DNA of 64,000 bases, taken from NCBI GenBank assembly GCA_965248925.1, contig CBDFLE010000004.1, positions 192,001 to 256,000 of the forward strand. Reading direction: 5' to 3'. The DNA comes from Candidatus Multivoradales bacterium. Lineage in GTDB: Bacteria > Acidobacteriota > Thermoanaerobaculia > Multivoradales > J023. How positions within the stretch are numbered: the first letter of the stretch is position 1; the number at the start of each line of letters is the position of its first letter. Under the pieces are notes generated by a model. That model worked only from the letters and a program-made list of their open reading frames with translations, searched no databases and was not told the DNA's origin. The position numbers and the translations under genes were made by a program. This document shows, one piece after another, positions 3,001 through 47,618 of the stretch.

Positions 3001-4942
3001 CGACGAACTCATTCGCCTCGAAAGCGACCTCGACGGCGACGGTGTTCTAGAGCAGGAATACCTGCCCTTCTACGACACGATCGGCAACCTAGTCCTACTC
3101 ACCAACGAAGCCGGCAAACCCATCGAACGCTACGCCTACGGCCCTTACGGCCGGCAGTGGATCGTCGCCGATTTGACAGCGCCCGCAGTCGAGCAGATCC
3201 GCATGAAAGGTGATGAGCTGTGGATCGAACTCTCAGAAGAAGTGCGGCTCGACCGCCTGCAAGCCGCCTCTAGCGCCGGCACGCTGACGCTGGTCAACGC
3301 CCTCGGCGATGAAATCAGCTTGCAGATCGAGCAGCCCATCGACAGCGGCCGCGCCGCCCGGCGGCGCGTGGTGCTCAGCGAGCTGCCGAGCCAGAATCCC
3401 CCACGCTGGCCGGTGGCGGGGGAGATTGCCACCCTGACCATCCCAGCCGGAGCCCTGGTCGACCTCTTCGAAAACAAAGGCGCGGCCGTGGCCGAGTCCA
3501 TGACCTGGCCGGCCATCGCGGACGAGATTTACAGCGACACAGCCCCTCCCCAGCTGCTTCAGGCTTGCGTCACAGCGCAAAGAAAAGTCGAGCTGGAATT
3601 CAGCGAGCCCCTCGACGAAGCGACCCTCGACACCATCCAGCTCAACAGCGTGGCAACCACCTGGACCGTCTCCGCCGATGGCTACCGCCTGACCAGCGGC
3701 GCCCTCGCGGTCGGCTCCAACACCCTGCTGGTAGACGGCGAACTGAAAGACCTCGCCGGCACCTCGCTGGCAGGCACCGTGAGCGAGAGCTTCATCGTCA
3801 ATCTAGATCAAGGCACGATCATCCACAGCGCTCCCTACGCCGGGCAGATCGCCATCTCGGCTACCGGTAACCCGTTTGGCTTCAAAGGCTTGCCGAGAGA
3901 CCCGGAGAGTGGGCTGATCTATGTCAGGCACCGCTACTACGATCCAGAAATAGGCCGGTGGATCACCTCCGATCCACTGGGACTCGTCGATGGGTCGAAC
4001 CGCTACCAGTTTGCCCTGAATGATCCGACTAACAACAGCGATCCCACCGGGGAGTTTGTGGTTGTTGGTTCGATCCTGATCGCAGCGGCGATCTATGGGG
4101 CTACTCACGAGATCGAACGAGCCACGGACGTAGACCCGCATGCTAGCGTTGGCGGAGCGGCGGCCCTGGGAGCGACGCGAGGTTTGGTAGTTGGCGGTCT
4201 CGCCATTGCATCGGGAGGGTTTGGTGGAGGACTTGCTGCTGGGCTTGGAGGAGGTACGATTGTCCAGGGCGCTACGGTGGGTGTCTTTGCGGGTGTTGGG
4301 GGCGTCTTTGCTGAGGATGTGATCGATGTCGGGGTGCTTCATCATCGGGAGAGCTTCAGCTCTATCGGGCAGTATGCTGGGGCAGCGGCGATTGGTGGTG
4401 CGTTGGGAGGTGTTGGTGGCGCAGTTCTGGCACGAATGCAGCCAGGAGGTGCTGGTAGGGTGGCACGAGGTGTTAGATCTATTCCAAGACGAAGTGTGAA
4501 GTACAAGACTTCAGGTATGGTTGCCGACATGGCTAGGTTCGACACTAGAAGGGGTGTTCAGTATCTCAATGAGGTTTCTAGGAGACGATATAGGATCTCA
4601 ATCAAGAATGGGAAGCTATACGACGCTTCAGGTCAGCTGTTCGAAACAGTCTCGGCTTCAACAGCATTTAGTAAAGGTAAGGCAATTTTTGTGATGAATG
4701 AAGTTGGAGAAATATTTGCTTCGACATCTCATAGAGTTGGCAGATTTCATCATTCTTCTTTCTTGGCTGGTGGGAAAGTTGCTGCTTCAGGAGAGATCGA
4801 AGTTATGAGAGGTATAGTTGTCGGAATGACGAGAAATAGTGGCCACTACAGGCAGGGTCCGCAGTACCTTCAGCAGATGACGAAAGAGCTTCGTAGGCAT
4901 GGTGTGCGTATTTCTCCAAGTCAAATAAAGGGAGGGTTCTAG
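1..4942 (+). CDS. Giant RHS/YD-repeat polymorphic toxin, unit 0 (5'-partial; barrel type A; C-terminal HHSSF...SGHY tip)
   Basis: YD repeats; RHS core GLIYVRHRYYDPEIGRWITSDPLG...NDPTNNSDPTG; Gly/Ala-rich hydrophobic segment, then a lower-GC tip. The first 148 nt match the middle of the giant genes, so the ORF starts upstream of the window. Confidence 0.92.
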   Translation, partial: DGNGRPDALKEQDWGAGTVHLAFDFDGQQTTLTDRRGKVWTYHLNAAGQMLSERDPASHQSNWSYEPSGALAQATEAGGITTDLTYGSDSPRQRGNVSSVTTTPSPGYPNPVAPVVVQVLERVKKTNRVASWNDKHGAQHLIITYPNELPKVRHDAYGTPLNATSSMTYDFFGRITEQTAPNQSKTTFTYSLEDGYLTQVVADAQNLALSTDFLERDARGNPLRWRDPRGVIHEAEYNALGWLLRQRQAISGGAAPIGLVSEFDYDANGQVTATRRSHSGGGMTAVRFTYGVLGELLRSEREVEPGGAAILETVAYDPHLNPTRIVDGVGGVTLLEYDARNLPLRKTSGAGTAAEIAEEYSYDADGRLVVYTDARQQVWRTEYDGLGRPAAQINPLGERTETEYTPGDLPIHQRRLSASGVVKSEQQWQWDVRARQTRGIAHLWAYGEGGGDGEAHQQLTTDFTYDAISNLLTVEGPGISLEHRYDSAGRRTLSQDQAGNIVELDLDPLGLVTSQRHLEQLAEGGTATVENTFTHDALGRPLSESLPHGGSRSWQYDVRGNLTRFADADGRVWTWQYDGLDRRLAEQAPGGVDLSHTYDQASRPLTYTDALGNQTRWVYDILGRRTDWLLNGVGVEIYGHDESGNPTSILRADGSRIDQSFDAAGRLISRQINLPDGTLGEAESYSHDALGRITQQTAGGISTQHTFDSLSRLTAETTAGLTVGYQHDAAGNLIQISYPSGRRVDIVPDGLNRPSTVAWAAPGPPEVKVRYGYRGGNLMSSRSLAQLTGVKTFDAGRRTAGWQVQDAGNQLLLGESLTWTPGSRLATATRTDLGGLTRRYGYQDGRLISAIQTGGPASSTPAATGWADVPASFTYSYDRAQNLLGMDFAQSCAATQVALPLDGSGWNRPASVAGEALQWTPRQELASKGNLNFTYSWDHRPIELRRNGVTIASYKYDSQGRRVERQVGADTYTTVWSGWQPIEEYKNGLLHSRRTYGVGLDELIRLESDLDGDGVLEQEYLPFYDTIGNLVLLTNEAGKPIERYAYGPYGRQWIVADLTAPAVEQIRMKGDELWIELSEEVRLDRLQAASSAGTLTLVNALGDEISLQIEQPIDSGRAARRRVVLSELPSQNPPRWPVAGEIATLTIPAGALVDLFENKGAAVAESMTWPAIADEIYSDTAPPQLLQACVTAQRKVELEFSEPLDEATLDTIQLNSVATTWTVSADGYRLTSGALAVGSNTLLVDGELKDLAGTSLAGTVSESFIVNLDQGTIIHSAPYAGQIAISATGNPFGFKGLPRDPESGLIYVRHRYYDPEIGRWITSDPLGLVDGSNRYQFALNDPTNNSDPTGEFVVVGSILIAAAIYGATHEIERATDVDPHASVGGAAALGATRGLVVGGLAIASGGFGGGLAAGLGGGTIVQGATVGVFAGVGGVFAEDVIDVGVLHHRESFSSIGQYAGAAAIGGALGGVGGAVLARMQPGGAGRVARGVRSIPRRSVKYKTSGMVADMARFDTRRGVQYLNEVSRRRYRISIKNGKLYDASGQLFETVSASTAFSKGKAIFVMNEVGEIFASTSHRVGRFHHSSFLAGGKVAASGEIEVMRGIVVGMTRNSGHYRQGPQYLQQMTKELRRHGVRISPSQIKGGF

Positions 4943-5256
4943 TGGTAGATTTAGCGGATGAATTGAGGACTGTGCTGTATACGATTTTCTATGTTGAAGA
5001 CTTGTCAGCATTTCAGGGTTTGACCTCCTCTCAGAAGGAAGCATTTCTTCGTGACCATACCCTTGAAGAGTTGGGAAAAATGCGAGATGGTCTCCGGTGG
5101 GGAGTGGCCAATTCTGACTACAATTTCTCATCTCTCTGGGAGGGTCTTAGCTATACTGACCAGGAGATTCTGAGGTATGTAGAAATATTACTGAGGGATT
5201 TTGAAGAATTTGTGCCGAAGCTGTCCCGTCCGCCGCGTCCACAGCCAAAATTGTAG
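4942..5256 (+). CDS. Putative cognate immunity protein (104 aa, acidic, cytoplasmic)
   Basis: GTG overlaps the toxin stop; small, lower GC, directly after the RHS tip; C-terminus LSRPPRPQPKL is encoded by the boundary repeat. Confidence 0.75.
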   Translation: MVDLADELRTVLYTIFYVEDLSAFQGLTSSQKEAFLRDHTLEELGKMRDGLRWGVANSDYNFSSLWEGLSYTDQEILRYVEILLRDFEEFVPKLSRPPRPQPKL

Positions 5257-5357
5257 CCAAACGACCACTTTATTGGTCGCCGTCCCTCATTAGATGGTGT
5301 CCCGTCCGCCGCGTCCACAGTCAAAATTGTAGCCAAACGACCACTTTACTGGTCGCT
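5222..5357 (+). repeat. Unit-boundary direct repeat, two ~55-bp copies (5222, 5298)
   Basis: TGTCCCGTCCGCCGCGTCCACAG(C/T)CAAAATTGTAGCCAAACGACCACTTTA twice, 76 bp apart. Confidence 0.9.
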
Positions 5358-5524
5358 GGTCCTTGTCAATGGACCCGCTCCTTGTCGCTCCTCCTCAGCT
5401 CACGCCGAGAATCTGCCAAACCGACGGCGATCTTCGCTTGCTGCCGAGAATCCGAGGCGCCTGAGCGAGCCTCACCGTGGACAGCGCGTCGCAGCAGCCC
5501 ATCAACTCTCCAGCCTGAGCCGCT

Positions 5525-6439
5525 CTACTTGGGCGCATGGAAGCCAGAGAGCACTCCTTGCCAGGCGGTCATGAATCGTAGGTGCCCTCGTGAGGGCTGG
5601 CGGCCGGTCCAGATCTCTGCCGGTGTGTAGCCGTCGAGGTTCTGGTGCGGGCGCAGTTCGTTGTACCAAAACCGGAAGAAATCCAGCTGCCTCTGGGCCT
5701 TGCGGCCCGCTGGCAGCGGCTCGCGCCGCCGCCGCAAGCGCTCTTTGAAGGTGCCAAAGAATCGCTCGATGCGTCCGTTCTGCCACGGCGAGGCCACCTG
5801 AGTTCGCTGGTGGCGAATGCCGAGAAGAAAAAGTGAGAGCCGGAAGATCCAAGAGGTAAAAGTGGGTTCATTATCGGTGCGCAGACACCTTGGCTTGCCG
5901 CAAAGCTCAATCGCGTCGAGCAGCTGGCGTACCAGCTCGACTGAGGCTTTGGTCTTGACAACCTGAAGGCACAAGCAGAGCCGAGTGCCGTGATCCAGCA
6001 GGCCGAGAATCATCTCTTTCTTGCCGGAGGTGTTGTCGGCGTAGGTGAGATCGGCGGCCCAGATCAGCCGCTTGCCGATGATTCCAGGTTTTCTCCTGCG
6101 GATCTTCCGGCGCCAAGCGAGAATCTCCAGCTGGTGCTCGTTGAAGATCTTTGCAACGTAGCTCTTGCCCACCGTCATTCGGCGATGGCGGTAGTTGCGA
6201 TTGAAGGCTGCCGCGATCGCCCTACAGCCATCGTCGGGCTGCAACGCCTTGAGCCGGATCACCGCTTGGCGCACCCACTTGGGCTTGCGCCGGCAGAAGC
6301 CGCGATAAGTCGTTGGGTCGGGTGGACACTTGGCTCGGCGGCGGTGCTTCGCCCTGGGTTGCAGGGCGAGCGAAGTGAGCGCAAGAATCAGAAGCAACAC
6401 GAACGCCCAGAGCAGGGCGCCGGCAAGATCAGAAGTCAT
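5525..6439 (-). CDS. rve/DDE integrase-core transposase (IS3/IS481-like fold) with N-terminal hydrophobic helix, unit 1
   Basis: WAADLT, LRTDNE, SPWQNGRIERFFGTFKE (D,D,E); WYNELRPHQNLDGYTP integrase C-terminal motif; HTH-like region KWVRQAVIRLKAL...VGKSYVAKI. Confidence 0.88.
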   Translation of the reverse strand: MTSDLAGALLWAFVLLLILALTSLALQPRAKHRRRAKCPPDPTTYRGFCRRKPKWVRQAVIRLKALQPDDGCRAIAAAFNRNYRHRRMTVGKSYVAKIFNEHQLEILAWRRKIRRRKPGIIGKRLIWAADLTYADNTSGKKEMILGLLDHGTRLCLCLQVVKTKASVELVRQLLDAIELCGKPRCLRTDNEPTFTSWIFRLSLFLLGIRHQRTQVASPWQNGRIERFFGTFKERLRRRREPLPAGRKAQRQLDFFRFWYNELRPHQNLDGYTPAEIWTGRQPSRGHLRFMTAWQGVLSGFHAPK

Positions 6440-6489
6440 TCCTTGAGAATACCGATCTCACGCAGCCTAGCCCGAGGTGCCGCGCTGCC

Positions 6490-6572
6490 TCACGTATCAC
6501 CTCTCGAATGCCAGAAGCCCGGCTTGTGCAACTCCAGCACGAAGTCCACCTCGGCGGCCCTCGTCTCGTAGT
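6490..6572 (-). pseudogene. 3' remnant of the 155-aa hypothetical gene, disrupted by IS21 (5' stub at 9475-9486)
   Basis: Matches 28693-28775; matching resumes after the IS at the equivalent of 29149, so ~373 bp are missing. Confidence 0.8.
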
Positions 6573-6786
6573 TGCCTGCACCGACGGAATTCGACCACCG
6601 ATTCCGATTGAAAGTGACCAGTGATTCCAACGGAATCTGACCATCGATTCCGATCGAAAGTGACCACTTTTCCGGGTCGATCGGAATGGGTGGTCAGATT
6701 GGATCGGAATCCTGGCCACGGCGGAGTTCGACGGTAGCGCGCTCCTCACAATTGGGGTATTCCAGCCTCCTTGAAAGGAGGATTGG

Positions 6787-8361
6787 ATGCCGAGAGTGAG
6801 GACATCGATGCGCAAGATACGCGAGGTACTGAGACTGAAATGGCAGCATGGCCTGTCGCACCGCCAGATCGGACGGTCGGTTCGGCTGGGCCACGTGACG
6901 GTGTGCAACTACCTGCTGCGAGCCAAGGTTGAAGGCCTGAGCTGGGAGCAAGTAGCAGCTTTGAGCGACGCTGAGCTGGAGCAACGCCTGTACCCTCGGC
7001 CGCAGCCGCTTCGGAGGGGTGGTCAGCGAGCCTTGCCCGACTGGACCAAGGTGCATGGCGAGCTGAAGAAGAAGTGCGTAACCCTGTCGCTGCTGTGGCA
7101 GGAGTACCGGGAGGACCATCCTGACGGCTACGGTCTCAGCCGCTTCTGTCAGCTGTACCGGATCTGGGAAGGGCGCCTGGATGTGTGCCTGCGCCAAGCC
7201 TACCGGGCGGGCGAGAAGCTGTTCGTCGACTATGCCGGACAGACCGTGAGGGTGATCGACCCGGCGACTGGCAAAGAGCGCGAAGCGCAGATCTTCGTGG
7301 CGGTGCTGGGGGCGAGCAACTACACCTATGCCGAATCAACGTGGAGCCAGGGCCTGGAGGACTGGATCGGCTCTCATGTGCGGACCTTCGCGGCTCTGGG
7401 CGGGGTGAGCGAGCTGGTGGTGCCGGACAATCTGAAGAGCGGCGTGACCAGCCCGTGCCGCTACGAGCCGGAGATCAATCGCACCTACGCGGAGTTGGCC
7501 GAGCACTACGGCGTGGCGGTGGTGCCGGCGCGGGTGAGGAAGCCCCAAGACAAGGCGAAGGTCGAAAACGGTGTATTGCAAGTGGAGCGCTGGATTCTGG
7601 CCCGGCTGCGTAACCAGCAGTTCTTCAGCCTGCGAGAGCTCAACGAGAGCATCGCGAAGCTTCTGGTCGAGCTTAACGACCGTCCGCTGAAGGTGTTGGG
7701 CGTCTCGCGCCGAGCGCTGTTCGAGCAGGTCGATCGTCCTGCTCTGGGTGCTTTGCCGCTCCAGCCCTACGAGCTTGCCGAATGGAAGAAGGTACGCGTT
7801 GCCCCGGACTACCACGTCGAGTTCGAGGGCCACTATTACAGTGTGCCGTACCAGCTGATCAAGAAGCAGCTCGATCTGCGGGCGACGGCGCAACTGGTGG
7901 AGGTGCTCGATCGCGGCAAGCGTGTGGCTGCTCATCGTCGCAATCGGTGTCGGGGTCGGCACACGACCCAGAGCGAGCACATGCCCAAAGCGCACCAGGC
8001 GTACCTGGAGTGGACACCGACACGGCTGATCAGCTGGGCGGCGAAAACAGGCCAGGCGACGGCCGAACTGGTGGAGACCATCATGCTTAACCGCTCCCAT
8101 CCTCAGCACGGCTTTCGCTCGTGTCTGGGGCTGATGCGCCTGGGCAAGACCTATGGTGCCAATCGTTTGGAGGCTGCGTGCCGCCGCGCGCTCGCCATTC
8201 ACGGCCTGTCCTACAAGAGCGTGAAGTCGATCCTGAAGAGCGGCCTGGACCAGCAAGCAGCGCCCGAGCCCACCGAAGTGACGGCGCCGATCGAGCATCG
8301 CAACGTCCGCGGCGCCAGCTACTACAGTGCCGCGCGCCGCGAGGAGACGCCGCCATGCTGA
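6787..8361 (+). CDS. istA: IS21 transposase IstA
   Basis: MRKIREVLRLK HTH; LFVDYAG, VPDNLKSGV, KPQDKAKVENGV motifs; ends HRNVRGASYY. Confidence 0.95.
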   Translation: MPRVRTSMRKIREVLRLKWQHGLSHRQIGRSVRLGHVTVCNYLLRAKVEGLSWEQVAALSDAELEQRLYPRPQPLRRGGQRALPDWTKVHGELKKKCVTLSLLWQEYREDHPDGYGLSRFCQLYRIWEGRLDVCLRQAYRAGEKLFVDYAGQTVRVIDPATGKEREAQIFVAVLGASNYTYAESTWSQGLEDWIGSHVRTFAALGGVSELVVPDNLKSGVTSPCRYEPEINRTYAELAEHYGVAVVPARVRKPQDKAKVENGVLQVERWILARLRNQQFFSLRELNESIAKLLVELNDRPLKVLGVSRRALFEQVDRPALGALPLQPYELAEWKKVRVAPDYHVEFEGHYYSVPYQLIKKQLDLRATAQLVEVLDRGKRVAAHRRNRCRGRHTTQSEHMPKAHQAYLEWTPTRLISWAAKTGQATAELVETIMLNRSHPQHGFRSCLGLMRLGKTYGANRLEAACRRALAIHGLSYKSVKSILKSGLDQQAAPEPTEVTAPIEHRNVRGASYYSAARREETPPC

Positions 8362-9119
8362 GGCACGCGACGCTCGATCAACTCGCCGCGCTCAAGCTCC
8401 ACGGTATGGCCAAAGCCTTTGAGGAGCAGCTGTCGATGGTCGATGTCTCAGAGCTCTCCTTCGAAGAGCGCCTCGGGCTGCTGGTCGAGCGCGAAGCGAC
8501 CGAGCGATCCAGCCGCCGCTTGATAGCGCGGTTGCGAAAAGCCAAGCTGCGCGAGCAGGCGGCCATCGAAGACATCGACTGGCGAGCCAAGAGGGGCCTG
8601 GACAAAGGCCAGATCCTGCGCCTGGCCTCGTGCCAGTGGATCGCCGAGCATCTCAACGTGCTGATCACCGGCAAGGCCGGGGTGGGCAAGACCTTTCTCG
8701 CCTGCGCCTTCGCGCACAAGGCATGTCGGGAGGGTTACACCGCTTTGTACCTGCGGGTGCCGAGGCTGTTTCGCCAGTTCGCCATCGCGCGGGGTGATGG
8801 TAGCTACGAGAAGCTGCTCAAGAGCTATGCTCGCACAGACCTGCTCATCCTCGACGACTGGGGGCTGGCGCCGATCGGGGCCAGCGAGCGGCGCGACCTG
8901 CTCGAGATTCTTGAGGACCGCTACGGCAACCGCTCCACGCTGGTGACCTCCCAGCTACCGGTTGAGAGCTGGTACGAGGTCATCGGCGATCCGACCTTGG
9001 CCGACGCCATCCTCGATCGCATTGTCCACGGCGCCTACAAGCTCGCGGTGGACGGTGACTCCATGCGGGCGAAGAGAGCCGGCGGTATTCGCAAGGCCGC
9101 CCAGCGAGAGGCAAGGTGA
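8355..9119 (+). CDS. istB: IS21 helper AAA+ ATPase IstB
   Basis: ATG 8355 after GAGGAG, overlapping the istA stop; Walker A GKAGVGKT, Walker B LLILDDWG, TSQLP, ADAILDRIVH. Confidence 0.95.
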   Translation: MLRHATLDQLAALKLHGMAKAFEEQLSMVDVSELSFEERLGLLVEREATERSSRRLIARLRKAKLREQAAIEDIDWRAKRGLDKGQILRLASCQWIAEHLNVLITGKAGVGKTFLACAFAHKACREGYTALYLRVPRLFRQFAIARGDGSYEKLLKSYARTDLLILDDWGLAPIGASERRDLLEILEDRYGNRSTLVTSQLPVESWYEVIGDPTLADAILDRIVHGAYKLAVDGDSMRAKRAGGIRKAAQREAR

Positions 9120-9511
9120 GATCCAAGAGCATGCTGAAGCGATCGCCGATCCTGACCCATCAGCGGGCCTGCGGCCCGATCCGGACCCGACCCAAGATGG
9201 ACTGTGGAAGCTGCCGCGGTTGTGGAAATCGCTCTGCGATTCCCACAACCGCTTGGAAAACGCCCCCCTGCCCCCCAACCTGCGTTTCCCACAGCTACGC
9301 ACAGCCCCGACGACGGGTTATTTGAATACAATCAATCAAGAAGAAGAGCCGGAAGGAGGGCTCCAGCTACAGCGAAAGTGGACACTTACAACTGAGGAGA
9401 GCGCCAGCGTCGCTTCGCTCCGACAAGTGGTCGGTTTCGATCGGAATGGCTGGTCAGTTTCGTCGGAATAGGCACAGGGTGGCCATTCTGGTGCTCCTCC
9501 TCGGTGATCTA

Positions 9512-9646
9512 TTATTGGCGGATATTGACGCCGAAACCAATGGCCATGGTTTCGTCTAGCTGCTGGGCAATAACTTGTGGATTGTCTTCGCTCTGGCGCC
9601 AATGTACTAGCCGCCCTAGCCCGAGCTGAATTCGTTCGGGTTTCAT
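9512..9646 (-). pseudogene. Internally deleted copy of PCD-like gene 2
   Basis: Start and end match 29186-29491, but 135 bp instead of 306 bp (in-frame 171-bp deletion). Confidence 0.7.
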
Positions 9647-9664
9647 TCACAATACTCCTTGAGG

Positions 9665-10027
9665 TCACGGTTCAAGAAAAAGCACCCACCGGGCAGAAGG
9701 GACCGGTCCTGCCCGGAGGGGAGTCGCCGTGGTTGGGGAGGGGCCACCACGGCCATCACAGGGACTCAGGGAGCGAGCGAGGTCGAAGTCCGCCGGCCGC
9801 AGACGGGCCGGCGCCACCGGCCCGATCCGTACCGAGACCCAGCGGCCGACTATCGCGGCTCTGGGTTCTAGGTTGGTGAGTTCACCGCGATAAAACACCC
9901 ACTCGACGAAGATCAGGGAATCGCGCCAAGAGTCAAAGAGATATTTGCGGGTGATCTTTTGTTGCCCCTTGATTTGTCGCCAAACGGGTAGGGCACTCAG
10001 GGCCTGTTGGATCTCTTCGTCGGTCAT
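9665..10027 (-). CDS. Pterin-4a-carbinolamine dehydratase (PCD/PhhB)-fold protein 1, degenerate
   Basis: MTDEEIQQALSALPVWRQ...ITRKYLFDSWRDSLIFV...WVSVRI...DFDLARSL follows the PCD pattern; LEP replaces the HHP catalytic motif; AAGGAGAG RBS. Confidence 0.65.
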   Translation of the reverse strand: MTDEEIQQALSALPVWRQIKGQQKITRKYLFDSWRDSLIFVEWVFYRGELTNLEPRAAIVGRWVSVRIGPVAPARLRPADFDLARSLSPCDGRGGPSPTTATPLRAGPVPSARWVLFLEP

Positions 10028-24000: not shown

Positions 24001-26976
24001 ACCCAGCGCAGCTACGATGGGCTCAACCGGATGACCCGCGAGGTGCGGCCGGAAGGAATCTCGGTCGACTACAGTTGGGACGACGCTTCGCGCCTCACCA
24101 CCTACACCGACGCCCGCGGCCAGGCCACCCGCTGGGAGTACGACGGCGTGGGTCGGCGCACCAAAGTCGTCTATCCCGATCAGCAGCAGGAGCGTTGGGT
24201 CTATGACCCCACCGGCAACGTTACCGAGCGCCACGATCCTCGCGGCCTGGTAGTGCATCAAAGCTGGGACGAGGCTGGGCGGTTGCAATCACGTACTGTC
24301 ACCCCGCCGCTGGGCGGCACCCTCGAAGGGCCGGGGGTCGAGGCTTTCACCTTCGACGGCCTCGACCGCCTGACCCGAGCCCAGTCGGGAAGCGTAGTTA
24401 CCGAGCGAGTCTACAACTCCCTCTCCCACCTGGCCTCAGAGACGAATGCCGGACGCACCACCAGCTGGCAGCGCAACGCCCTTGGCGAGCCCACTCGCAC
24501 TAGCTACCCCTCGGGCCGCCAGGTCGAGCGCGCCTTCGACAATCTCGGCCGAGCCAGCACGGTTGGCGAACCCGGCGCGCCAGCCTCGATTGCCAGCTAC
24601 GGCTATCGCGGCCCGGCGATTGCCTACAAGGCTCTCGGCAATGGTCTCCTGGGCAACATAAGCTTCGATGGCTTGCGCCGGATGGTGGACAGCAACTTCA
24701 GCCTGGCGGGGGAGTCCGCCACCTTCCAGGAGAGTCTGGCCTGGAGTCCCCGCAGCCTCAAGACCGGCCAATCGCGGGGCGATCTGGGCGGCGCCGGCCG
24801 GGTCTTCGCCTACGATGGCGCGAAGCGCCTGATCGAATCCGCTCGCGTGCCCCCGGCTTTGGCTCAGCGCCCTGGCAACACGCCCCCCGACGTGGCCCTG
24901 CTGGCCACCTTGCCCGAACGCACGAGCTACCAGCACGACAACGCCATGAACCTGATTCGCAGCACCACCACCCAGCGTGGCATCGAGCAGATCACCGACT
25001 TGCCGCCCGACAATCGCAATCGTCCCAGCGCCTTCGGCGGCGTTGCCCTCGAATGGGACGCTGCCGGCAACATGAAGCGCAAAGGCGATATGCAGATGTA
25101 CTATGATTTACACAACCGCCTGACGCGGGTCGCCCGCGCCGGTGTCGAAGTCGCCAAGTATCACTACGACGCCTTCAACCGCCGGGTGAAGGTCGAAACG
25201 CCGACCCACACTGACGACAGCGTATGGGACGGCTGGCAGTCGTTAGAGACCTATCGCGATGGCGCCTTGGCTTCGCGGCGAGTTTACGGCAACGGTATCG
25301 ACGAGATCCTGCAACAAGAGGCCGACCTCGACGGAGATGGCACGGTGGAGCAGACTTACTATCCGATCACCGACAGCACCGGCAACGTGGCGATGCTGAC
25401 CGGAGCCGACGGCAAGCCCATCGAGCGCTACTTCTACAGCCCCTTCGGCGGGCGCAAAGTGCTGGTCGACTCCACGCCCCCCGAGGTCGAACAGGTGCGG
25501 GTCCAAGACAGTGCACTGTGGATCGAGCTTTCTGAAGAAGTCTCCACCGAAGAACTACAAGCCAGCCTGGCCGACGGTCGCATCCAGCTGACCCAGACCA
25601 GCGACGGAATGCCCCTACCGCTGAACTTCGATCTACCCGTTCAGGAAGGCCGTCAAGCTCGGCGAAGACTCGTACTGACGCCGGCCACGCTGCCGGCCGA
25701 CGGTGACAGCCTGCGGCTAGAAGTCGCCGCCAGCGCGCTGAGCGATACCTTCCGCAACCTGGCCAATGCCGGCGTCGACCTCACCTGGACCTGGTCCGCG
25801 GCCGACGAAGTGCTGCAAGATACCGCCGCGCCGCGGGTCGCCGAAATCCTGCTGCGATCACGCGTCGTCGAGATCCAGTTCAGCGAAGAAGCCGATTTCG
25901 CCGCCGCGTCTGGCGCGATCCTCTTAGACGGTCAGCCCACTAGCTGGACCCTGGCTGAAGACCGATACACCCTGATCTCTACTACGACGCTGGCAGCAGG
26001 AACGCACACACTCGACATCAGCACCACCGCTCTCGACCTCGCCGGCAGCGGCCTGGCCGCTGCCTTCAGTCAGGCGCTCGACGTGCCCGCCAGCGGCGAC
26101 CAGCTGGCCTACCAGGCCGCCGACCCACGACTCAGCAGCACCAGTGCCGCCGGCAACGCTCATGGCTTCCATGGCCGGCCGGTGGATGAGGAAACCGGGC
26201 TGCTGTACTTCAGGAATCGGTATCTTGATCCGGAGATGGGACGGTTTGTTAGTAGCGACCCGATGGGTTATGTGGATGGGCCTAGTGGGTATCAGTTTGC
26301 GGGGAATAACCCTGTCAATGATAGTGATTCTCTTGGCCTGAGGCGGGAAGTGAGAGAGCCGGTTACGAGAAAGGAAAGGCGGATCGCGCGAGCTTACAAC
26401 GCTGAGTATGAGAAAATGAAGTCGGACCCGAGATTTTCCGACGCTCTCAAAGAGCTTAAAGAAAATGAAGATTATACTTTGGAGGTCGTCTTTGATGATG
26501 AGTACGATGGATATGGGCAGTTGGCAGTAGTGGGGGGGTACAAGTTTGACGATGATGGGAACCTTATAGGTGCAACGCTAACAGTCGGGCCAGGTTTTAG
26601 AGGCTCTATTAATATTGGAAATGACGAAATGTACCCGTATGGGAGTACTCTCTCGGGAGAGAAGAACAGGCGAGTTTATACAATCTTGCATGAGGAGCTC
26701 GGACATGGTTTCCTGCCTATAACAGACAGGAAATATCTCAGTATACTTCAGGAGAAATCTGCTTACAACGAACGCCTCAACGAGCTGGAAGAAAGTGTCA
26801 GCGTGCCCAGGTCGAGTGCCCGAGAGTGGGTTGAAGAATATCAGCGGCTTTTCGCTGAGAGTGAATTCAGTACGCCTGAGTTCAAGAAGCGCAGGATCGA
26901 AATTAAGAAATATATTGAAAACAGTGCCGATCAACGTGCCCAGGAACTCATTGAAGGTGGTGGAAGGGATGAGTAG
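12049..26976 (+). CDS. Giant secreted Ig-repeat/LVIVD/RHS polymorphic toxin, unit 1 (4975 aa; barrel type B; HEELGH metallopeptidase-like tip)
   Basis: Signal peptide ending AAQA; repeated Ig-like D-x-x-P-P...SG units; Big_5-like FSEP/DxAGN domains; LVIVD-like repeat; pre-RHS motif SGEMTRQAIDL...GPLGPGWDHGY; YD repeats; core ETGLLYFRNRYLDPEMGRFVSSDPMG. Confidence 0.93.
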   Translation: MSKQLSLRSLLVLQASLGALLLSVSAAQAAPVFVSVTPADGTLSSAATVTLTIEVQAATSLQVDGQAVTTVDPSGTVWTAGPYSLSEGERVLVLIAEDASGVQAQQLHRVVRDSLPPVLSLSQPAAGAIVASSPLIVAGTAVDAHLAAVRVGGQVAALSGASFSHSLVLVEGEQTFTVEASDSLGQSGQQSVTVTLDSQPPTVALLEGAQPLAADALFNRSVVLSFSVTDATATTVEALLDGASFTSGTTVSAAGSHVLSVTATDAAGQPTSVSRSFEIDLTAPTFLSFTPSDGTLLADSQVTLSGVVEGAAALSVEGQAASLVGQSWTAGALQLIEGEREISILATDLAGNSASFTLHLERDATAPQLIGLVPSVDSVLATSPVAISGTASDAHLLEVRVGGELASLTGSQFSHPAVVLVEGENLLPIVATDQVGHQATAELRLVLDTQAPTLSVLVAGVPLQGGAVFAGPVTPEISASDATEVVTSATLDGATYLPGTVIAGDGLHQLSVSASDAAGHQATVLVSFSLDLAAPVFADLAPVAGSVDSAAQVTLTGRAPGAVSVSVDGQAATLAGDGFSAGPFNLSEGERVFLLAATDSGGNVTQLTHRLTRDSTAPQLTLGQPAAGSLLGSTTVDVSGTASDPRLDQVTVNGVLAEISGGAFLARQVALIEGDNVLTVVAADTVGNEVQTTRSVTVDTTPPTVVITDPASGTITPEAGLTLSGSAADPHLDRVEVAGVGASLAGGQWSLAVDLQEGSNTFTVEAFDPLGHSTSASVTVTRDSSAPEIHIESPAEGLYSPAANLTVSGTVVAEPDLTVTVGGVAATVAGSSWSAAAVPLVEGENRLIARVTDALGNQGTHTRVVWRDNQAPEFLSSIPAAGALELPAGSSFRLRFSEPLAAPSGGAYSLSTLAGQALASSAEIDGDDLVITPQAALPSATELRLVLGAGLVDRAGNALAAAHTLAFTVVDGGSPAAPQLDAYASYLCAPAITLAGSAEPGAWIEVDGGASVGAGQVADDGRFAISVVLLPEGPNHLTVIAVDAAGNPSPATSADIVHDCTAPEVLGASREAAGFRIALSETVDPLTLSGSVRVYDSGVEIAGTVSAAVNAGAGELIWTATAALPSVALLVEVEGALADLAGNPLAFPYRQLFDIALGGSFFSGTAIDDASGRPLGGVRAVVTASDGVALAEPWPEQTSGEDGRLVIALPAGTHDVTFARPGYTPVFRVVTTVDGQGTDVFDPRLTPAAAAVSIDASGGLVEGSSEVGTAPRLTLPPAGLASAAAVRLTAVGGQGLAALLPYGWAPRGAVWVDLSAVNLDSSATLDLPVTSPDGTVLEAVTLDLATLQWRSLGVVTVSGGEVTMTVDGEGAWAAVEADSGALAPPPAVAGQMLGSSAAPPSGGVTSASLSFDPEVVLPTQRSWVQVLYGLAAEVPSGVPLTLSIEERLELLDGSVRRISPYSADLVLYRDSLGDPTSRFRLRPSAAARSLPVRLGAEQVSVRSYGDETVRGNVLGPDGGVVSSAEGDQVVLPTGALEEPTAVTLSRRTVADLPLAPPAGGTVDGVLELDLAGRRLLLPAELSWSLTPAPAAGTPGLLLGVVEVEGEPRYRAIAELEATGTGWRTQAIDAADLAWPGVLEGGLYVFLRLDAAPRFVRGMVLDPGGAPVVGAVVESTTVPWLQISAAEGGYVLPILLDAATLSARRAVTGNAVAVALPAGVAAERVDLDLPLQIVAPWVEQITPSAGTSGVLLGFNPVVRFSEPVDRASLDGAIELRQGGVAVAVALDHQGALVTLLPQATLVPGSEYEVWVGAAVRDLQGYGLSGSVSVLFSTEVVATPAGVDRGRIFLVEPDAQGLARVEGLAGAAPAGTLVFVENLTSFSTTESVQSAGDGSFLLTIGASLDDQLLLHVLIDGGNEVVILLTPFLGADLRTGLAGTGAGEFTTADGITVRYAAGTFAGPSRVQVTPIAMGTLAAAEDFSELVTFRLEIAGAQPLKPLEVTMAAPAGTAPAGTAAGSLWLLRRQLEIADLPWMVHAELALDGGELSTIHTVGEAQSANSGEVGGTKSGTFDVPAPLRVLSPAEAAARLPRSGFLSALPPADPAALVEVEPPLAGLGPAKATVVPVLADYLVGVSRPGIYQAARAEVELGWIAFPFRGAQDLVVRTAELPEVVLALDAVNRSFLPLGAGALPVELSPTPLNADPAAPGTKAPPAGEPKADSVEIQVLDFAGVELYRLVVDAPTQQLVLLTPSQLPNAGPPMPVGGGPLRFHAFDVAEGTAEIAAGISAELEGNSLTVRGEAGSAGAGVAVRLIDLESSNVLSATASPGGSFSVVASPSQLGDQLVLAISAKLTPGQPLRLDFSEALQEEAPGIRVEHDGMALPITKEPLGSWAQLRIHGGWQAGKTYNLRLDSTMADAAGLPWDTDLTLPFEVAESSAGTSFALDAAHDIARLGSLLFVAAGADGLAVLDASDPRQLKNWLAAETYVDLVSEPGLPVRGVATDSHGRVVAVGGGVARRGVLLILDPQELPQGAATVPAAAILGRTLLTEPQLAGSGAPPLLIGRPLEVEIFNRDQSTTWTLGEAVPPGLTLAPPSPPSGTAAVSLTVSGMATAERPVTLRNLTTGERDSARVGSAGGGGAGSFSLSLSVQRGDRLELLRNELSLAYVAGYDAGVVTVDLNAVEAADEEVDDPWDAFDLLRYNTHYFVPTEVLCSTFENDQRFDVIEARVLPAASEGEPWSVLALVENYGLLSLGASVAAPLDKLAYRDALCGEVDDNRKLGGLDVLPGYRFDRNGDGVLDDDEPERDYALLTNTVGGGGRGWLLIVDVTERDELRRVGRIELPGPATRVTADPVGRRALVSGLGGGVYIVDLDRWPELGGGGGTPQIWSSDRVVERLSFGEDVRAPTLVAPELGLAFAGGVARGVTPISTGLPRLSLVTSGQQGLRRVARLAPFGAPTAPESAEEGAEEIPGVIRVQAQLPGGLADAEGKIRVDLAGIGPAGLPVRGLGEGLMDEPMAELKDDKALVLQRQSDNPLSEGYNVFLSDPVVLLADVRASAHFERSEAEKKVCRRCDLVDEGVYSAADLPPNELHVELLSGHQVRASYSASFATSLSGLYNADLLAGYAVIADSVPWDLSPSPHQEPVLNAATSAMAAPGTLLHSGEMTRQAIDLSLQGRGLDLALVRTYRSQTISNGPLGPGWDHGYRLRLRLLPNGDIDFFDGTGRRETFTLEDDRELKPPVGRFVQLKKYAEGYTLIGSGYQRWRFDRWGRLVSMIDSVRTSEGTGNEITFHYDSHSRLARIHDDLDRNTFLHYDDEGRLEKIVDFSDRDFLYHYDAQGRLTSFETPDVDLGSGSSQRLSTTYAYHPLGTGLAGQLTQRDDLKSETDAKSQTWLTLRYQDSDGNGRPDALKEQDWGAGTVHLAFDFDGQQTTLTDRRGKVWTYHHNAAGQATSLVDPKSANGSWQYDGEGLLTRATRPLGGATEIEYPADTSGDRRGRGDALRMVKIADSRGPNGSPSELVTTWEYHSPTHQPSRKTEPGGAVTVWVRTDNGLPQQIVRAAGAAEQSITGLTYNARGQLLEATNPNGHVTRHSYFASGGQKGYLQQTEVDPGGLSLVTTYERNDRGQLEAITDPRGVRHETELNNLDWPLAQVAAASTSGFLAPLGYRTTWSYDANGDISEVASPFGDGSTTTIEARTYGVLGELLSVEREVAPGGRRIVETSTYDPNLNLLTHIDGAGQRVEREYDDRGQLSLVRRGLGTGALATPIVEHQSYDLDGHLSSQRDGRGMTWEAERDGHGRVLRSRSPLGHYREQRYNPAGDLAALLAYDAGGQLLVESAFAYDLLHRRTETTAWRWTPDPQQPDPSRTAEKTHHRWDAASNLLEVEDPLGRLTRTSYDAAERPERVELPEGNVRRTTYDSGGLPITEHADEVDPAGGSHTITYQSTFDALGRRLSRQDGIFANRTLWTVDARGQVTLEVDPTGSFTQRSYDGLNRMTREVRPEGISVDYSWDDASRLTTYTDARGQATRWEYDGVGRRTKVVYPDQQQERWVYDPTGNVTERHDPRGLVVHQSWDEAGRLQSRTVTPPLGGTLEGPGVEAFTFDGLDRLTRAQSGSVVTERVYNSLSHLASETNAGRTTSWQRNALGEPTRTSYPSGRQVERAFDNLGRASTVGEPGAPASIASYGYRGPAIAYKALGNGLLGNISFDGLRRMVDSNFSLAGESATFQESLAWSPRSLKTGQSRGDLGGAGRVFAYDGAKRLIESARVPPALAQRPGNTPPDVALLATLPERTSYQHDNAMNLIRSTTTQRGIEQITDLPPDNRNRPSAFGGVALEWDAAGNMKRKGDMQMYYDLHNRLTRVARAGVEVAKYHYDAFNRRVKVETPTHTDDSVWDGWQSLETYRDGALASRRVYGNGIDEILQQEADLDGDGTVEQTYYPITDSTGNVAMLTGADGKPIERYFYSPFGGRKVLVDSTPPEVEQVRVQDSALWIELSEEVSTEELQASLADGRIQLTQTSDGMPLPLNFDLPVQEGRQARRRLVLTPATLPADGDSLRLEVAASALSDTFRNLANAGVDLTWTWSAADEVLQDTAAPRVAEILLRSRVVEIQFSEEADFAAASGAILLDGQPTSWTLAEDRYTLISTTTLAAGTHTLDISTTALDLAGSGLAAAFSQALDVPASGDQLAYQAADPRLSSTSAAGNAHGFHGRPVDEETGLLYFRNRYLDPEMGRFVSSDPMGYVDGPSGYQFAGNNPVNDSDSLGLRREVREPVTRKERRIARAYNAEYEKMKSDPRFSDALKELKENEDYTLEVVFDDEYDGYGQLAVVGGYKFDDDGNLIGATLTVGPGFRGSINIGNDEMYPYGSTLSGEKNRRVYTILHEELGHGFLPITDRKYLSILQEKSAYNERLNELEESVSVPRSSAREWVEEYQRLFAESEFSTPEFKKRRIEIKKYIENSADQRAQELIEGGGRDE

Positions 26977-27433
26977 ATTAAGGAATTGTATTCATGTTGT
27001 TGAGTCATTGACTCTGGGTATTGCTATATTCCTTATTGTCGAGGCTTGTGCAGTTACCGGAGAGTGTTTGATCTCTGAAGGCGAGATTTCGTCGTATCAG
27101 AGGTTAATTGTTCGACCAGAGAACTCTGGTGATTTCTACCGGGTAGTCGGGATTTACCGTGGTGGGTTTGAGACTTCTGTAGTTACCCTGTTCCTTGATG
27201 AGGATCTGAGTTTGTTGAATTTGGACTATAGCGGGTCTATGGCGTATTGCGTTAGAGTCAGAGACTCTTGTGAATCGGTGTTTTACGAAGGACTCTCTGG
27301 CAACGTGGAGGCGTCATTCGACTACCCATTCTATGGCAAGGTCGATTTGCTGGTTCGCTTTGAAGGGGAGTCTAGCGATTTAGACTGTCGGTCTGGCAGA
27401 TTGACCGTGTTGCGAATTCACGAAATGCATTGA
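26969..27433 (+). CDS. Putative immunity protein (154 aa, N-terminal hydrophobic segment, likely exported)
   Basis: ATG overlaps the toxin end; low GC; LTLGIAIFLIVEAC segment. Confidence 0.7.
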   Translation: MSRLRNCIHVVESLTLGIAIFLIVEACAVTGECLISEGEISSYQRLIVRPENSGDFYRVVGIYRGGFETSVVTLFLDEDLSLLNLDYSGSMAYCVRVRDSCESVFYEGLSGNVEASFDYPFYGKVDLLVRFEGESSDLDCRSGRLTVLRIHEMH

Positions 27434-27442
27434 TTTCCTGTC

Positions 27443-27560
27443 TGTCCCGTCCGCGTGTCCCGTCCGCGGCGTCCACGATCAAAATCGTAGCCAAACGGCC
27501 TGTCCCGTCCGCGGCGTCCGCGAACGAAATAGTGGCTAAAAGGCCACTTTATTAGCCGTC
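27443..27560 (+). repeat. Unit-boundary direct repeat, three staggered copies (27443, 27456, 27501)
   Basis: TGTCCCGTCCGCG; TGTCCCGTCCGCGGCGTCCACGATCAAAATCGTAGCCAAACGGCC; TGTCCCGTCCGCGGCGTCCGCGAACGAAATAGTGGCTAAAAGGCCACTTT. Confidence 0.88.
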
Positions 27561-27727
27561 TAGCCTCGCCGGTAAGCCGGCACCGTGCCGATCATCCTCA
27601 GCTCATTCTGAAAATCTTCCCAGCCGACCGCCATCTTCGCTCACCGGCCGGAAATCGTGCCCCATGGTCGCACCTCACCGTGGACAGCGCGTCGCAGCAG
27701 CCCATCAACTCGCCAGCCCGAACCGCT

Positions 27728-28642
27728 CTACTTGGGCGCATAGAAGCCAGAGAGCACTCCTTGCCAGGCGGTCATGAATCGTAGGTGCCCTCGTGAGGGC
27801 TGGCGGCCGGTCCATATCTCTGCCGGTGTGCAGCCGTCGAGGTTCTGATGCGGGCGCAGTTCGTTATACCAAAACCGGAAGACATCCAGCTGCCTCTGGG
27901 CCTTGCGGCCCGCTGGCAGCGACTCGCACCGCCGCCGCAGGCGCTCTTTGAAAGTGCCGAAGAAGCGCTCGATTCGGCCGTTCTGCCAGGGCGAGGCCAG
28001 TTGCGTTCGCTGATGGCGGATGCCCAGCAGGGCCAGCGAGAGCCGGAAGATCCACGAGGTGAAGACAGGCTCGTTGTCAGTGCGCAAGCACTTTGGCTTG
28101 CCGCAGAACTCGATCGCGTCGAGCAGCTGGCGCACCAGTTCGACCGAGGCTTTGGTCTTGACAACTTGAAGGCACAAGCAGAGCCGAGTGCCGTGATCCA
28201 GCAGGCCGAGAATCATCTCTTTCTTGCTGGCGGTGTTGTCAGCGTAGGTGAGATCGGCGGCCCAGATCAGCCGCTTGCCGCCGATCCCAGGTTTTCTCCT
28301 GCGGATCTTCCGGCGCCAAGCGAGAATCTCCAGCTGGTGCTCGTTGAAGATCTTTGCAACGTAGCTCTTGCCCACCGTCATTCGGCGATGGCGGTAGTTG
28401 CGATTGAAGGCTGCCGCGATCGCCCTACAGCCATCGTCAGGCTGCAACGCCTTGAGCCGGATCACCGCTTGGGGCACCCACTTGGGCTTGCGCCGGCAGA
28501 AGCCGCGATAAGTCGTTGGGTCGGGTGGACACTTGGCTCGGCGGCGGTGCTTCGCCCTGGGTTGCAGGGCGAGCGAAGTGAGCGCAAGAATCAGAAGTAA
28601 CATGAAGGCACAGAGCAGGGCGCCGGCAAGATCAGAAGTCAT
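27728..28642 (-). CDS. rve/DDE integrase with N-terminal hydrophobic helix, unit 2 (intact)
   Basis: Close paralog of 5525-6439 with DDE motifs intact. Confidence 0.88.
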   Translation of the reverse strand: MTSDLAGALLCAFMLLLILALTSLALQPRAKHRRRAKCPPDPTTYRGFCRRKPKWVPQAVIRLKALQPDDGCRAIAAAFNRNYRHRRMTVGKSYVAKIFNEHQLEILAWRRKIRRRKPGIGGKRLIWAADLTYADNTASKKEMILGLLDHGTRLCLCLQVVKTKASVELVRQLLDAIEFCGKPKCLRTDNEPVFTSWIFRLSLALLGIRHQRTQLASPWQNGRIERFFGTFKERLRRRCESLPAGRKAQRQLDVFRFWYNELRPHQNLDGCTPAEIWTGRQPSRGHLRFMTAWQGVLSGFYAPK

Positions 28643-28692
28643 TCCTTGAGAATACCGATCTCACGCAGCCTAGCCCGAGGTGCCGCGCTGCC

Positions 28693-29160
28693 TCACGTAT
28701 CACCTCCCGAATGCCAGAAGCCCGGCTTGTGCAACTCCAGCACGAAGTCCACCTCGGCGGCCCTCGTCTCGTAGTCACGCCGCTCCTTCGCCGCCGCGAT
28801 CCTGGCGGCGATCTCGCTGGCCAGGTGCTCTCCCTTGCCGGGTCGCGTCGGCAAGGCTTCTCTGGCCACATCGCGGAGGACTTGCTCCACCAGCGCCCGG
28901 TCCTTCTTCTTCGGGTCGCTAGCGTGGTTGAGAAACCACAGGATCAGCGCCGCGGGCTCGAGGAAGCGGTGGTTGACCGCGGCCAGGAAGGCCGCGGTCA
29001 GCTCTTCGATCGGTGCGCTGGCAGAAAGCTTAATCTCAGCCAGGCTGTCGATGCTGGAATGATTGAGTCGCTGGTTGGCGCCGGTGATCTGAGCGGCGAT
29101 CTGGCGTACTGTCTGGTGGATCTGTTCGGTGGTCATAGGCTTTCTGGACAGAGTGGCCAT
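28693..29160 (-). CDS. Hypothetical helical protein (155 aa), conserved in the unit
   Basis: AGGAGG RBS; near-identical copy at 48750-49217; directly upstream of the integrase. Confidence 0.75.
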   Translation of the reverse strand: MATLSRKPMTTEQIHQTVRQIAAQITGANQRLNHSSIDSLAEIKLSASAPIEELTAAFLAAVNHRFLEPAALILWFLNHASDPKKKDRALVEQVLRDVAREALPTRPGKGEHLASEIAARIAAAKERRDYETRAAEVDFVLELHKPGFWHSGGDT

Positions 29161-29185
29161 TCTGGTGTTCCTCCTAGGTGATCTA

Positions 29186-29491
29186 TTATTGGCGGATATT
29201 GACGCCGAAGCCGATGGCCATGGTTTCGATGGCTTGGGCCAGGGCGATGTGTTGCTCGGTGAGTTCGGCCTCCGGCGTGGCGGGCAACTTGAGGGTCAGC
29301 AAAGTGCCTCGTAGATGAACTTCGATCGTTGCCCTCTGACACACCACGAAAGCCAGGAGCTGGCGCAGGAACCGGTAGGCGGCGGGGAAGTCGACGAACT
29401 CTAGCCGCTGGGCAATAACTTGTGGATTGTCTTCGCTCTGGCGCCAATGTACTAGCCGCCCTAGCCCGAGCTGAATTCGTTCGGGTTTCAT
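29186..29491 (-). CDS. PCD-fold-like protein 2 (101 aa)
   Basis: MKPERIQLGLGRLVHWRQ...IAQRLEFVDFPAAYRFL...ELTEQHIALAQAIE resembles the PCD pattern, no HHP; AAGGAG RBS. Confidence 0.6.
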   Translation of the reverse strand: MKPERIQLGLGRLVHWRQSEDNPQVIAQRLEFVDFPAAYRFLRQLLAFVVCQRATIEVHLRGTLLTLKLPATPEAELTEQHIALAQAIETMAIGFGVNIRQ

Positions 29492-29509
29492 TCACAATAC
29501 TCCTTGAGG

Positions 29510-47525: not shown

Positions 47526-47618
47526 CCCTACTTAGTCAGATTGTCCGCCCTCAGAAAGCGTCCCGTCCGCCGCGTCCGCGATCAAAATCGTAGCCAAACG
47601 GCCACTTTATTGGTCGCC
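47494..47618 (+). repeat. Unit-boundary repeat: degenerate copy (47494) and full copy (47560)
   Basis: TGGCCCGTCCCCCACGTCCACAATCAGACTAGCC; GTCCCGTCCGCCGCGTCCGCGATCAAAATCGTAGCCAAACGGCCACTTTATTGGTCGCC. Confidence 0.85.

Follow-up and report, generated by a model that had tools for sequence, protein, structure and literature searches.

The 18-mer TGTCCCGTCCGCCGCGTC recurs in direct orientation along a stretch of 64,000 nucleotides (nt) from a Candidatus Multivoradales bacterium (Acidobacteriota). This stretch, called the window here, corresponds to positions 192001-256000 of contig C4 in the six-contig assembly of the source genome (G000), and it is occupied by tandem units of about 20 kb, each containing a giant Rhs toxin gene. 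The 18-mer is probably the outer terminus, or tip, of an IS481/IS3-like DDE element of about 1.2 kb, named E hereafter, for which it would be the equivalent of a right inverted repeat. E lies directly after the variable toxin cassette and is convergent with it, so that the tip forms the constant right-hand border of every cassette. The anatomy of E, its conservation, its orientation, the selection acting on its gene and the existence of tip-precise illegitimate junctions are all directly supported by the analysis.

Seven matches to TGTCCCGTCCGCCGCGTC are present in the window when up to three mismatches are allowed, all of them on the plus strand, for a chance expectation of 0.25; none of 100 shuffles gave seven. 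Three copies are exact (starting at 5222, 5298 and 61142), three carry one mismatch (27456, 27501 and 47559) and a degenerate one carries three (47494), to which can be added a 13-nt piece at 27443 read directly from the sequence. The positions and the uniformly direct orientation reported for this motif in an earlier note on the same DNA are thus borne out. In a genome-wide search on both strands, the 11-nt core of the motif was found 19 times forward and never in reverse on C4, and ten times forward and never in reverse on C5, with no inverted copy in the toxin arrays of these two contigs; the four remaining copies, all on C6, are isolated, unrelated and at chance level. The other 29 of the 33 copies lie inside Rhs toxin arrays, where each adjoins a copy or a remnant of E. 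Reciprocally, each transposase copy or fragment of the genome adjoins a tip within a toxin array, and free-standing copies are absent. This distribution, confined to the arrays and to the forward strand, excludes a dispersed repeat of the repetitive extragenic palindromic (REP) or bacterial interspersed mosaic element (BIME) type and means that the motif has no inverted partner in this genome. The lack of such a partner, which the earlier note had judged by eye, is therefore extended to the whole genome, and the two findings that it had set against itself, an inverted copy close to where the integrase gene starts or a dispersed REP, were not encountered.

Homology between the copies of E begins precisely at the T of TGTCCC, which makes the motif the outer boundary of the element. 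E is composed of a short leader, a single transposase gene transcribed toward the tip and a non-coding end region of about 230-240 nt. On the strand of the transposase gene the tip ends with ...GGGACA-3'. The ends of the IS481 and IS3 families have the general form 5'-TGT...ACA-3', and retroviral-integrase-type enzymes act on ends finishing with ...CA-3'. Three sites of GTCC type are found in the end region. The first is the terminal TGTCCCGTCC; the second, direct and TGTCCGC-like, is 12-20 nt inside, and the third, an inverted copy, is about 180 nt inside (at 179 nt from the tip in each of the three copies of the window); they are putative binding sites for the transposase. The E copies are least alike in the 200 nt beside the tip (85% identity, with a minimum of 67%) and reach 90-99% identity over the remaining element. 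A small hairpin and a T-rich run, located 30-46 nt from the tip on the transposase strand, may terminate the transposase transcript.

The transposase contains the rve and rve_3 domains, with a D130/D189/E225 triad that is invariant in the alignment, and its nearest relatives of solved structure are retroviral integrase cores. Its best NCBIfam match is IS481 (NF033577, 107.8 bits for a cut-off of 224, profile positions 1-62 being unmatched), followed by IS3 (NF033516, 92.7 bits for a cut-off of 160), and DDE_Tnp_IS240 scores 26.9 for a cut-off of 27, a weaker match than rve_3. Nine intact copies of the gene are present in this genome, each as one continuous open reading frame (ORF) of 304 amino acids (aa). 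The pairwise ratio of nonsynonymous to synonymous divergence (dN/dS) has a median of 0.17 in this genome, with dS values up to 0.28, and ranges from 0.16 to 0.24 among four Nitrincola copies; by this measure, purifying selection acts on the gene in two phyla. Residues 1-30 of P0001, the product of the second window copy (28553-28642, minus strand), form a hydrophobic stretch resembling a membrane helix, followed by a basic patch. This hydrophobic N-terminus, unusual for a transposase, is kept, with the basic patch, in homologues from Acidobacteriota and Gammaproteobacteria.

Seventeen truncated copies of the tip, 13-496 nt in length, were found in this genome, and 15 of them abut a next copy that restarts at base 1. 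At C5:49301, for example, pieces of 45, 41, 31 and 14 nt precede a full copy. Some of the partial copies differ in sequence type from the next full copy, as does the 45-nt piece at 27456-27500 of the window. Neighbouring copies that share at least 0.8 identity are also stacked in 12 loci outside this genome. The staggered partial copies had been interpreted in the earlier note as scars of repeated insertion at one site, and the analysis is in line with this interpretation: the pieces are truncated on their 3' side, and base 1 of the tip is the point of restart in every case.

Two further junctions, in both of which the two parent sequences are still present in the genome, illustrate the same precision. 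The segment C5:51432-61120 is a 9.7-kb, 99.65% identical copy of C4:187380-197068; between C5:61120 and C5:61121, some 150 nt into the first immunity ORF, it meets base 1 of an E whose sequence matches C4:269596-270899 at 100% identity. Between C4:265413 and C4:265414, a 1642-bp multicopy insertion sequence (IS), deprived of its last 318 nt, meets base 1 of a complete E, with a 13-nt piece of tip at C4:264087, ahead of the cut IS. This IS (C4:264096-265423 and elsewhere), of which about 30 copies share 96-99.9% identity, one being cut by the tip of E, has evidently been active recently. Short-read contigs from four of four runs span window positions 26300-27484 or 26300-27500 without differences and one more contig spans 27471-27663, which shows that the stacked copies are not an artefact of long-read assembly; the four runs are contigs of one study, maybe from the source sample, and inform on junction support only, not on dynamics, circles or rare variants. 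Loose ends of short-read contigs also match the junctions at C5:61121 and C5:10730 and the stacked tips at C5:49387 and C4:163134. With one side constant at base 1 and the other without homology, the breakpoints are those expected of a transposase acting on an end, and not of slippage or homologous exchange. Such tip-precise illegitimate junctions argue for an end-specific, transposase-mediated joining.

Homologues of the transposase were detected in 11 of 40 related genomes (45-56% identity, expectation values below 1e-37), in only one of 300 genomes sampled across the phylum (protein search) and in many other phyla. At least 1379 homologous protein clusters are retrieved at an expectation value of 1e-20 or lower, under names that are at most 'integrase core domain-containing protein' (PGAP). 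The tip accompanies the gene. Of 78 loci belonging to several phyla, 69 have a tip, with at most one mismatch, no farther than 420 nt from the point where the gene match ends (median distance 241 nt), and six of the nine loci devoid of it are on contigs that end too soon. Conservation over the first 10 nt of the tip ranges from 68% (base 6, C or T) to 100%, the consensus being TGTCCCGTCCGC.TGTCCGC, and 45 of 68 loci have an inverted copy of 7-10 nt of the TGTCCGC part, 171-201 nt inward from the end.

A second end was looked for by local alignment over 500 nt upstream of the gene in 52 loci. A significant inverted partner starting from tip position 0 was obtained in only one of them, L044 (z = 8.5), a 1388-bp unit whose ends are alike across about 33 nt and which could be either the ancestral form with two ends or the remnant of a head-to-head pair. 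In genome G009 (three copies) and in Nitrincola (four copies), the left boundary of the element is sharp, 40-75 nt upstream of the start codon, with differing flanks, and it is not an inverted repeat of the tip. Two copies in different contexts of genome G318 share homology only from the interior of the gene to the tip.

These data bear on the possibility that E is a passive fossil, in which case an ordinary two-ended IS would have entered the DNA a single time, downstream of an ancestral Rhs cassette, and would have been copied with the 20-kb units after losing its left end, the tip now being idle and the stacks and junctions arising by slippage, illegitimate recombination or assembly error. 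Such a history would account for the fact that all E copies of this genome are alike in their left neighbour, which is either a 155-aa ORF or a divergent paralogue of that ORF, hence a spread by duplication; the resemblance of L044 to a two-ended form and the lack of visible target duplications point the same way. We nevertheless consider it unlikely. Neither slippage nor random breakage would lead 15 of 17 extra copies to begin anew at base 1, and the base-1 breakpoint is left unexplained at the two junctions whose parents are extant at 99.6-100% identity. A fossil also fits poorly with purifying selection on the gene in two phyla and with the recurrence of the one-ended layout and of stacking in unrelated lineages.

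Several points weigh against the reading of E as an element acting through a single end. Known transposition of the IS3/IS481 type uses two ends. Identical scars would be left if a whole second copy were inserted and recombination followed. The arrays are repeats in an assembly of six contigs in which the end of C4 overlaps the start of C5 (C4:278798-284747 and C5:1-5947 are 99.93% identical over 5.9 kb), so that some distant junctions are possibly misjoined, although several of them are backed by the short-read contigs; the toxin array itself probably continues across this break. Since the E copies of this genome share their left context, they multiplied with the units by segmental duplication and not by transposition. 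No target-site duplication was recognised in Nitrincola, G009 or L044; inside arrays none would be expected, because the two flanks of a copy there belong to different cassettes. The loci entering the cross-phylum counts are not independent, several coming from the same assembly. Finally, one of the three window copies is damaged, the gene of E copy 3 being in two pieces (residues 113-304 and 1-114) with a frameshift near residue 113, as a result of which the 380-aa ORF 47786-48928 is a fusion of frames.

We infer from the sequence that the transposase makes use of the tip. It would bind the GTCC sites and nick at the ...ACA-3' of the tip, and the freed 3'-OH would be transferred into nearby, sister-chromosome or paralogous DNA in a one-ended strand transfer, the product of which would be resolved by replication or by homologous recombination with a resident E. 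Different targets would lead to different outcomes. A target inside another E would leave a truncated tip copy stacked outside a full one, a target in the flank would result in an adjacent deletion trimming the DNA up to or into the immunity gene, and a target in another unit would produce a unit duplication, a deletion or a new combination of cassette and E. In addition, E could supply the right-hand homology arm for cassette exchange. A one-ended scheme of this kind would explain why only same-orientation, local products survive. The earlier note had hesitated between an att-like site and a one-ended, self-targeting terminus. The second part of this proposal fits all the tests; the first is not supported, as the window contains no tyrosine recombinase, the motif has no stable fold and the position of the junction in the flank is variable.

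The same observations make it highly improbable that the motif is an integron-type site (attC/attI) served by a dedicated site-specific recombinase, even though each cassette has one copy or one cluster, all direct, with a recombinase-type gene adjoining each. Integrons have a tyrosine recombinase beside the array and a folded, imperfectly palindromic site behind each cassette. The adjoining enzyme is here a DDE transposase and not a tyrosine or serine recombinase. No match to Phage_integrase (PF00589) was found in C4:192001-256000, the nearest being at C4:257665, and the single-strand folds are unremarkable (z from +0.6 to -2.7), with the terminal 12 nt unpaired. The junctions occur at varying points, some of them inside ORFs, and the motif runs on into the 1.2-kb conserved body. 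Very little credence can likewise be given to a regulatory or RNA element, be it a terminator of the toxin operon, a structured 3' untranslated region of the transposase messenger RNA or a guide-type RNA. The hairpin with its T-rich run and the inverted repeat about 180 nt inside could be viewed in this way, but the 242-nt end region folds no better than shuffles (z -0.05), no Rfam match was found in 47400-49400 and the near-invariant terminal 10 nt are unpaired; the base-1 restarts and the illegitimate junctions would remain without explanation.

The association of E with toxin genes extends beyond this genome. The largest tip-side ORF on the opposite strand is of a toxin type in 20 of 60 loci (Rhs in 13, filamentous haemagglutinin/CdiA-type in six and Tle1 in one). 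On the same strand, none of the 49 tip-side ORFs is an Rhs or haemagglutinin gene, and one encodes an RTX protein. The largest ORFs on the left side are toxin fragments or contain toxin domains in 11 of 63 cases. Arrays of E copies in the same orientation, with orphan toxin fragments between them, were observed in G009, Nitrincola and Pseudoduganella, the Nitrincola copies being 3.6-6.4 kb apart; E is then followed by 5'-truncated Rhs or haemagglutinin fragments that start at differing core positions. Cassettes bordered by E are found at Rhs and CdiA-type loci in Acidobacteriota, Nitrospirota, Gamma- and Betaproteobacteria, and others. On a plasmid of Undibacterium sp. YM2 (NZ_AP018442.1, 127727-168629; locus L105), a transposase homologue faces a hypothetical gene and a 'tandem-95 repeat protein' gene spanning about 38.8 kb, and the association may extend past Rhs and CdiA to other giant surface proteins.

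Such arrays could also be produced by a translocatable unit, that is, by E and its neighbouring cassette leaving as a circle and re-entering beside another E or in the toxin core, the tip being the crossover point between E copies. This route would agree with the cassettes of 3.6-6.4 kb between same-orientation copies in Nitrincola and G009, and the truncated fragments with varied core positions are expected from a circle integrating by core recombination. A precedent has been described in Burkholderia thailandensis, in which genes for contact-dependent growth inhibition are carried, in a cargo of 210 kb, by an IS2-like 'megacircle' transposon (Ocasio & Cotter 2019, PMC6350997). As an explanation of the tip this route seems decidedly unlikely, because IS26 and the IS2-like element possess two inverted ends, which E does not. 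The targeted conservative reaction is not known to leave truncated ends, stacking is frequent here, and no circle junction was seen. The translocatable-unit route overlaps the one-ended, transposase-mediated reading and may act alongside it.

Compared with known systems, E resembles IS481 and IS3 through its single rve-type DDE transposase, its size of about 1.2-1.4 kb and its TGT...ACA terminus. It differs from them by profile scores far under the curated cut-offs, by the lack of an inverted partner in 51 of 52 loci and by a TGT tip at one end only. Its complex end region (three GTCC sites over 180 nt), its hydrophobic N-terminus and the absence of free-standing copies in this genome distinguish it from both families, and its one continuous ORF contrasts with the two overlapping ORFs and the -1 frameshift of IS3. 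With the IS6/IS26 family, the direct-orientation array layout is the only shared feature, E having no paired inverted repeats comparable to the 14-bp ones of that family. IS26 units and the IS2-like megacircle have in common with E that direct-orientation IS copies flank a passenger and that insertion takes place beside an existing copy, and the Burkholderia passenger is a polymorphic toxin system; those elements have two inverted repeats and much larger or unrelated cargo, whereas E is one-ended, with single cassettes of about 1.1-1.3 kb and stacked truncated ends.

One-ended transposition is known in the Tn3 family and in ISEcp1 (IS1380), and adjacent deletions are known for IS elements; their products start at one end and stop variably, with deletion or mobilisation of the flank. 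The Tn3- and ISEcp1-type elements normally have two ends, one of which is used occasionally, and their enzymes belong to other families; to our knowledge, this type of transposition has no link with toxin cassettes. H-rpt IS-like elements are located between displaced C-terminal/immunity modules in the Rhs loci of E. coli, with a transposase of another family (ISAs1). The right inverted repeat of ISPa57 from Pseudomonas aeruginosa, as listed in Table 1 of PMC7378034, starts with the same 10 nt as the tip. No homologue of the E transposase was found at L106, a locus with the ISPa57 end (tblastn, nothing under an expectation value of 3.7), and the likeness is probably limited to the end motif.

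For the swaps of C-terminal cassettes, the left crossover is explained by homology of the conserved core, and the right junction has so far been vague. A base-precise DDE element at this right junction is a testable candidate for the missing recombination step. The occurrence of mobile-element genes between displaced CdiA/Rhs C-terminal/immunity modules has already been published (Ruhe et al. 2016, PMC4927057), and in the extracts consulted that paper specifies neither a transposase family nor a terminus, and mentions neither a rule of orientation nor stacking. In the available extracts of Aravind's 2012 survey (PMC3482391), 'integrase' is not mentioned and 'transposase' appears once. In the literature searched, from which ISfinder was missing, so that an IS name may already exist, no description was found of the E family, of its single conserved end or of stacked tips; a cross-phylum, single-ended family with stacked tips may be new relative to this literature. 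A widespread IS-like family persisting with a single end is unusual among DDE elements.

Taken one step further, E could be a DDE-based, single-end platform for the capture of polymorphic toxin cassettes, in parallel to integrons. The tip would attack incoming or paralogous toxin DNA past the immunity gene, core recombination would complete the swap, and selection would keep E for the diversity of the repertoire, a host benefit that we infer. This extension is doubtful at present. If true, the tip would make the right border of each new cassette, trimming it to the immunity gene, in Rhs and CdiA systems across many phyla. If E were instead a passive passenger, the tip would still be a precise marker for cassette borders and orphan arrays.

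Each unit of the window contains a gene for an HTH-TPR regulator, the giant Rhs gene (about 5000 aa), its variable C-terminal region, a small ORF without family, the motif and the 304-aa rve/rve_3 gene on the opposite strand. The Rhs protein matches RHS_repeat with an expectation value of 1e-62. Its core terminates at a conserved ...DPLG...DPTG sequence (PxxxxDPxGL-type motif) with divergence beyond, as is characteristic of Rhs polymorphic toxin loci. The four small ORFs have no Pfam or NCBIfam match, and no homologue of ORFs 4942-5253 and 46902-47522 was found among the candidates searched; they are presumed, from position only, to encode immunity proteins. The GC content is 0.50-0.57 in the 1-kb bins immediately before each motif cluster. 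The low-GC stretches, of about 1.1-1.3 kb each, are located ahead of the DNA shared between units, the repeat families of which (D7-D9) begin at 5298, 27501 and 47559. The clusters thus sit at a switch from low-GC to conserved unit DNA, as stated in the earlier note, which had also placed the motif after all four putative immunity ORFs; the tip is indeed found 0-40 nt beyond the last ORF, or within it, at all four window junctions (Table 1). The two ORFs that it had seen running into the motif with an RPPRPQ tail end with ...SRPPRPQPKL (4942-5256) and ...ARPPRPQSD (46902-47525), and the last motif copy, described there as a bare 18-mer, is indeed one and is followed by unrelated DNA.

Seven of the 14 junction ORFs of at least 58 codons in this genome enter the tip in the same frame, SRPPRP, which gives the shortest tail, and this bias may reflect selection for the shortest added tail. 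No reading-frame bias was found in other genomes (frame counts of 15, 8 and 5), so that the SRPPRP frame is not a property of the family. In their C-terminal regions (4052-4560 and 60018-60520), Rhs proteins one and four of the window have in common about 170 glycine-rich, hydrophobic residues past the core motif before they diverge, which suggests a second, nested module boundary within the cassette. At the end of the array (61257-64000), a gene for an XRE-type regulator (61257-61622) is followed by a 286-aa ORF without family and by a DnaG-like primase gene starting at 62165. This region may belong to another mobile element that cut the last E to 18 nt.

Table 1. Cassettes, truncated tips and E copies along the window; the left coordinates of all four cassettes are approximate.
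Feature	Coordinates	Strand	Basis
Cassette 1: variable Rhs C-terminal toxin region and putative immunity ORF 4942-5256, which enters the tip	4052-5221	+	Core-end divergence, GC 0.518
Truncated terminus copy (first 76 nt of E), abutting a full copy	5222-5297	+	Family D17, 90% identity to next copy
E copy 1: tip 5298-5315, internal inverted GTGGACAGCGCG 5477-5488, intact transposase gene 5525-6439 (304 aa)	5298-6572	-	rve, rve_3; homology to unit 2
Cassette 2: variable toxin region and putative immunity ORF 26795-27433, with its stop 10 nt ahead of the first tip copy	26338-27442	+	Core-end divergence
Two truncated terminus copies, of 13 nt (27443-27455) and 45 nt (27456-27500)	27443-27500	+	Sequence comparison; spanned by short-read contigs
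E copy 2: tip 27501-27518, internal inverted site 27680-27691, intact transposase gene 27728-28642 (P0001)	27501-28692	-	
Cassette 3: variable toxin region and putative immunity ORF 46902-47525, which enters the degenerate tip copy	46207-47493	+	Core-end divergence
Degenerate truncated terminus copy (15 of 18 bases matching, about 31 nt), then about 34 nt of filler	47494-47558	+	
E copy 3: tip 47559-47576 (base 1 C for T), internal inverted site 47738-47749, frameshifted transposase gene	47559-48750	-	
Cassette 4: variable toxin region and putative immunity ORF 60785-61102	60018-61141	+	Core-end divergence
Solo 18-nt tip remnant with no element body, then XRE-type regulator and primase genes	61142-61159	+	

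The transposase gene of E copy 1 is stop-free, with 95% identity, and the left side of this copy has been removed by an IS21-type element (about 6573-9473, with an IstA-like ORF at 6787-8361 and an IstB ORF at 8121-9119) lying between E copy 1 and the adjacent host module, where its insertion replaces about 370 nt of the 155-aa ORF. In unit 3, an IS4-like transposase gene (DUF4372 and DDE_Tnp_1, 50047-51204) is found upstream of the divergent HTH-TPR regulator gene (51268-52647). Both the IS21 and the IS4-like genes are secondary insertions. E copy 2 ends within 50 nt ahead of the stop codon of the 155-aa ORF. This ORF, which has no family, forms a minus-strand three-gene module at 28693-29872 (also at 48750-49806, with remnants at 9474-10027) together with ORFs of 120 and 101 aa that weakly resemble pterin-4a-carbinolamine dehydratase. 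The three ORFs were considered as a part of E and rejected, since the trio occurs without E, and the E copies of G009 and Nitrincola lack it. The trio recurs without the transposase at four or more other places of the genome, with 40-50% identity, and is a separate multicopy host module.

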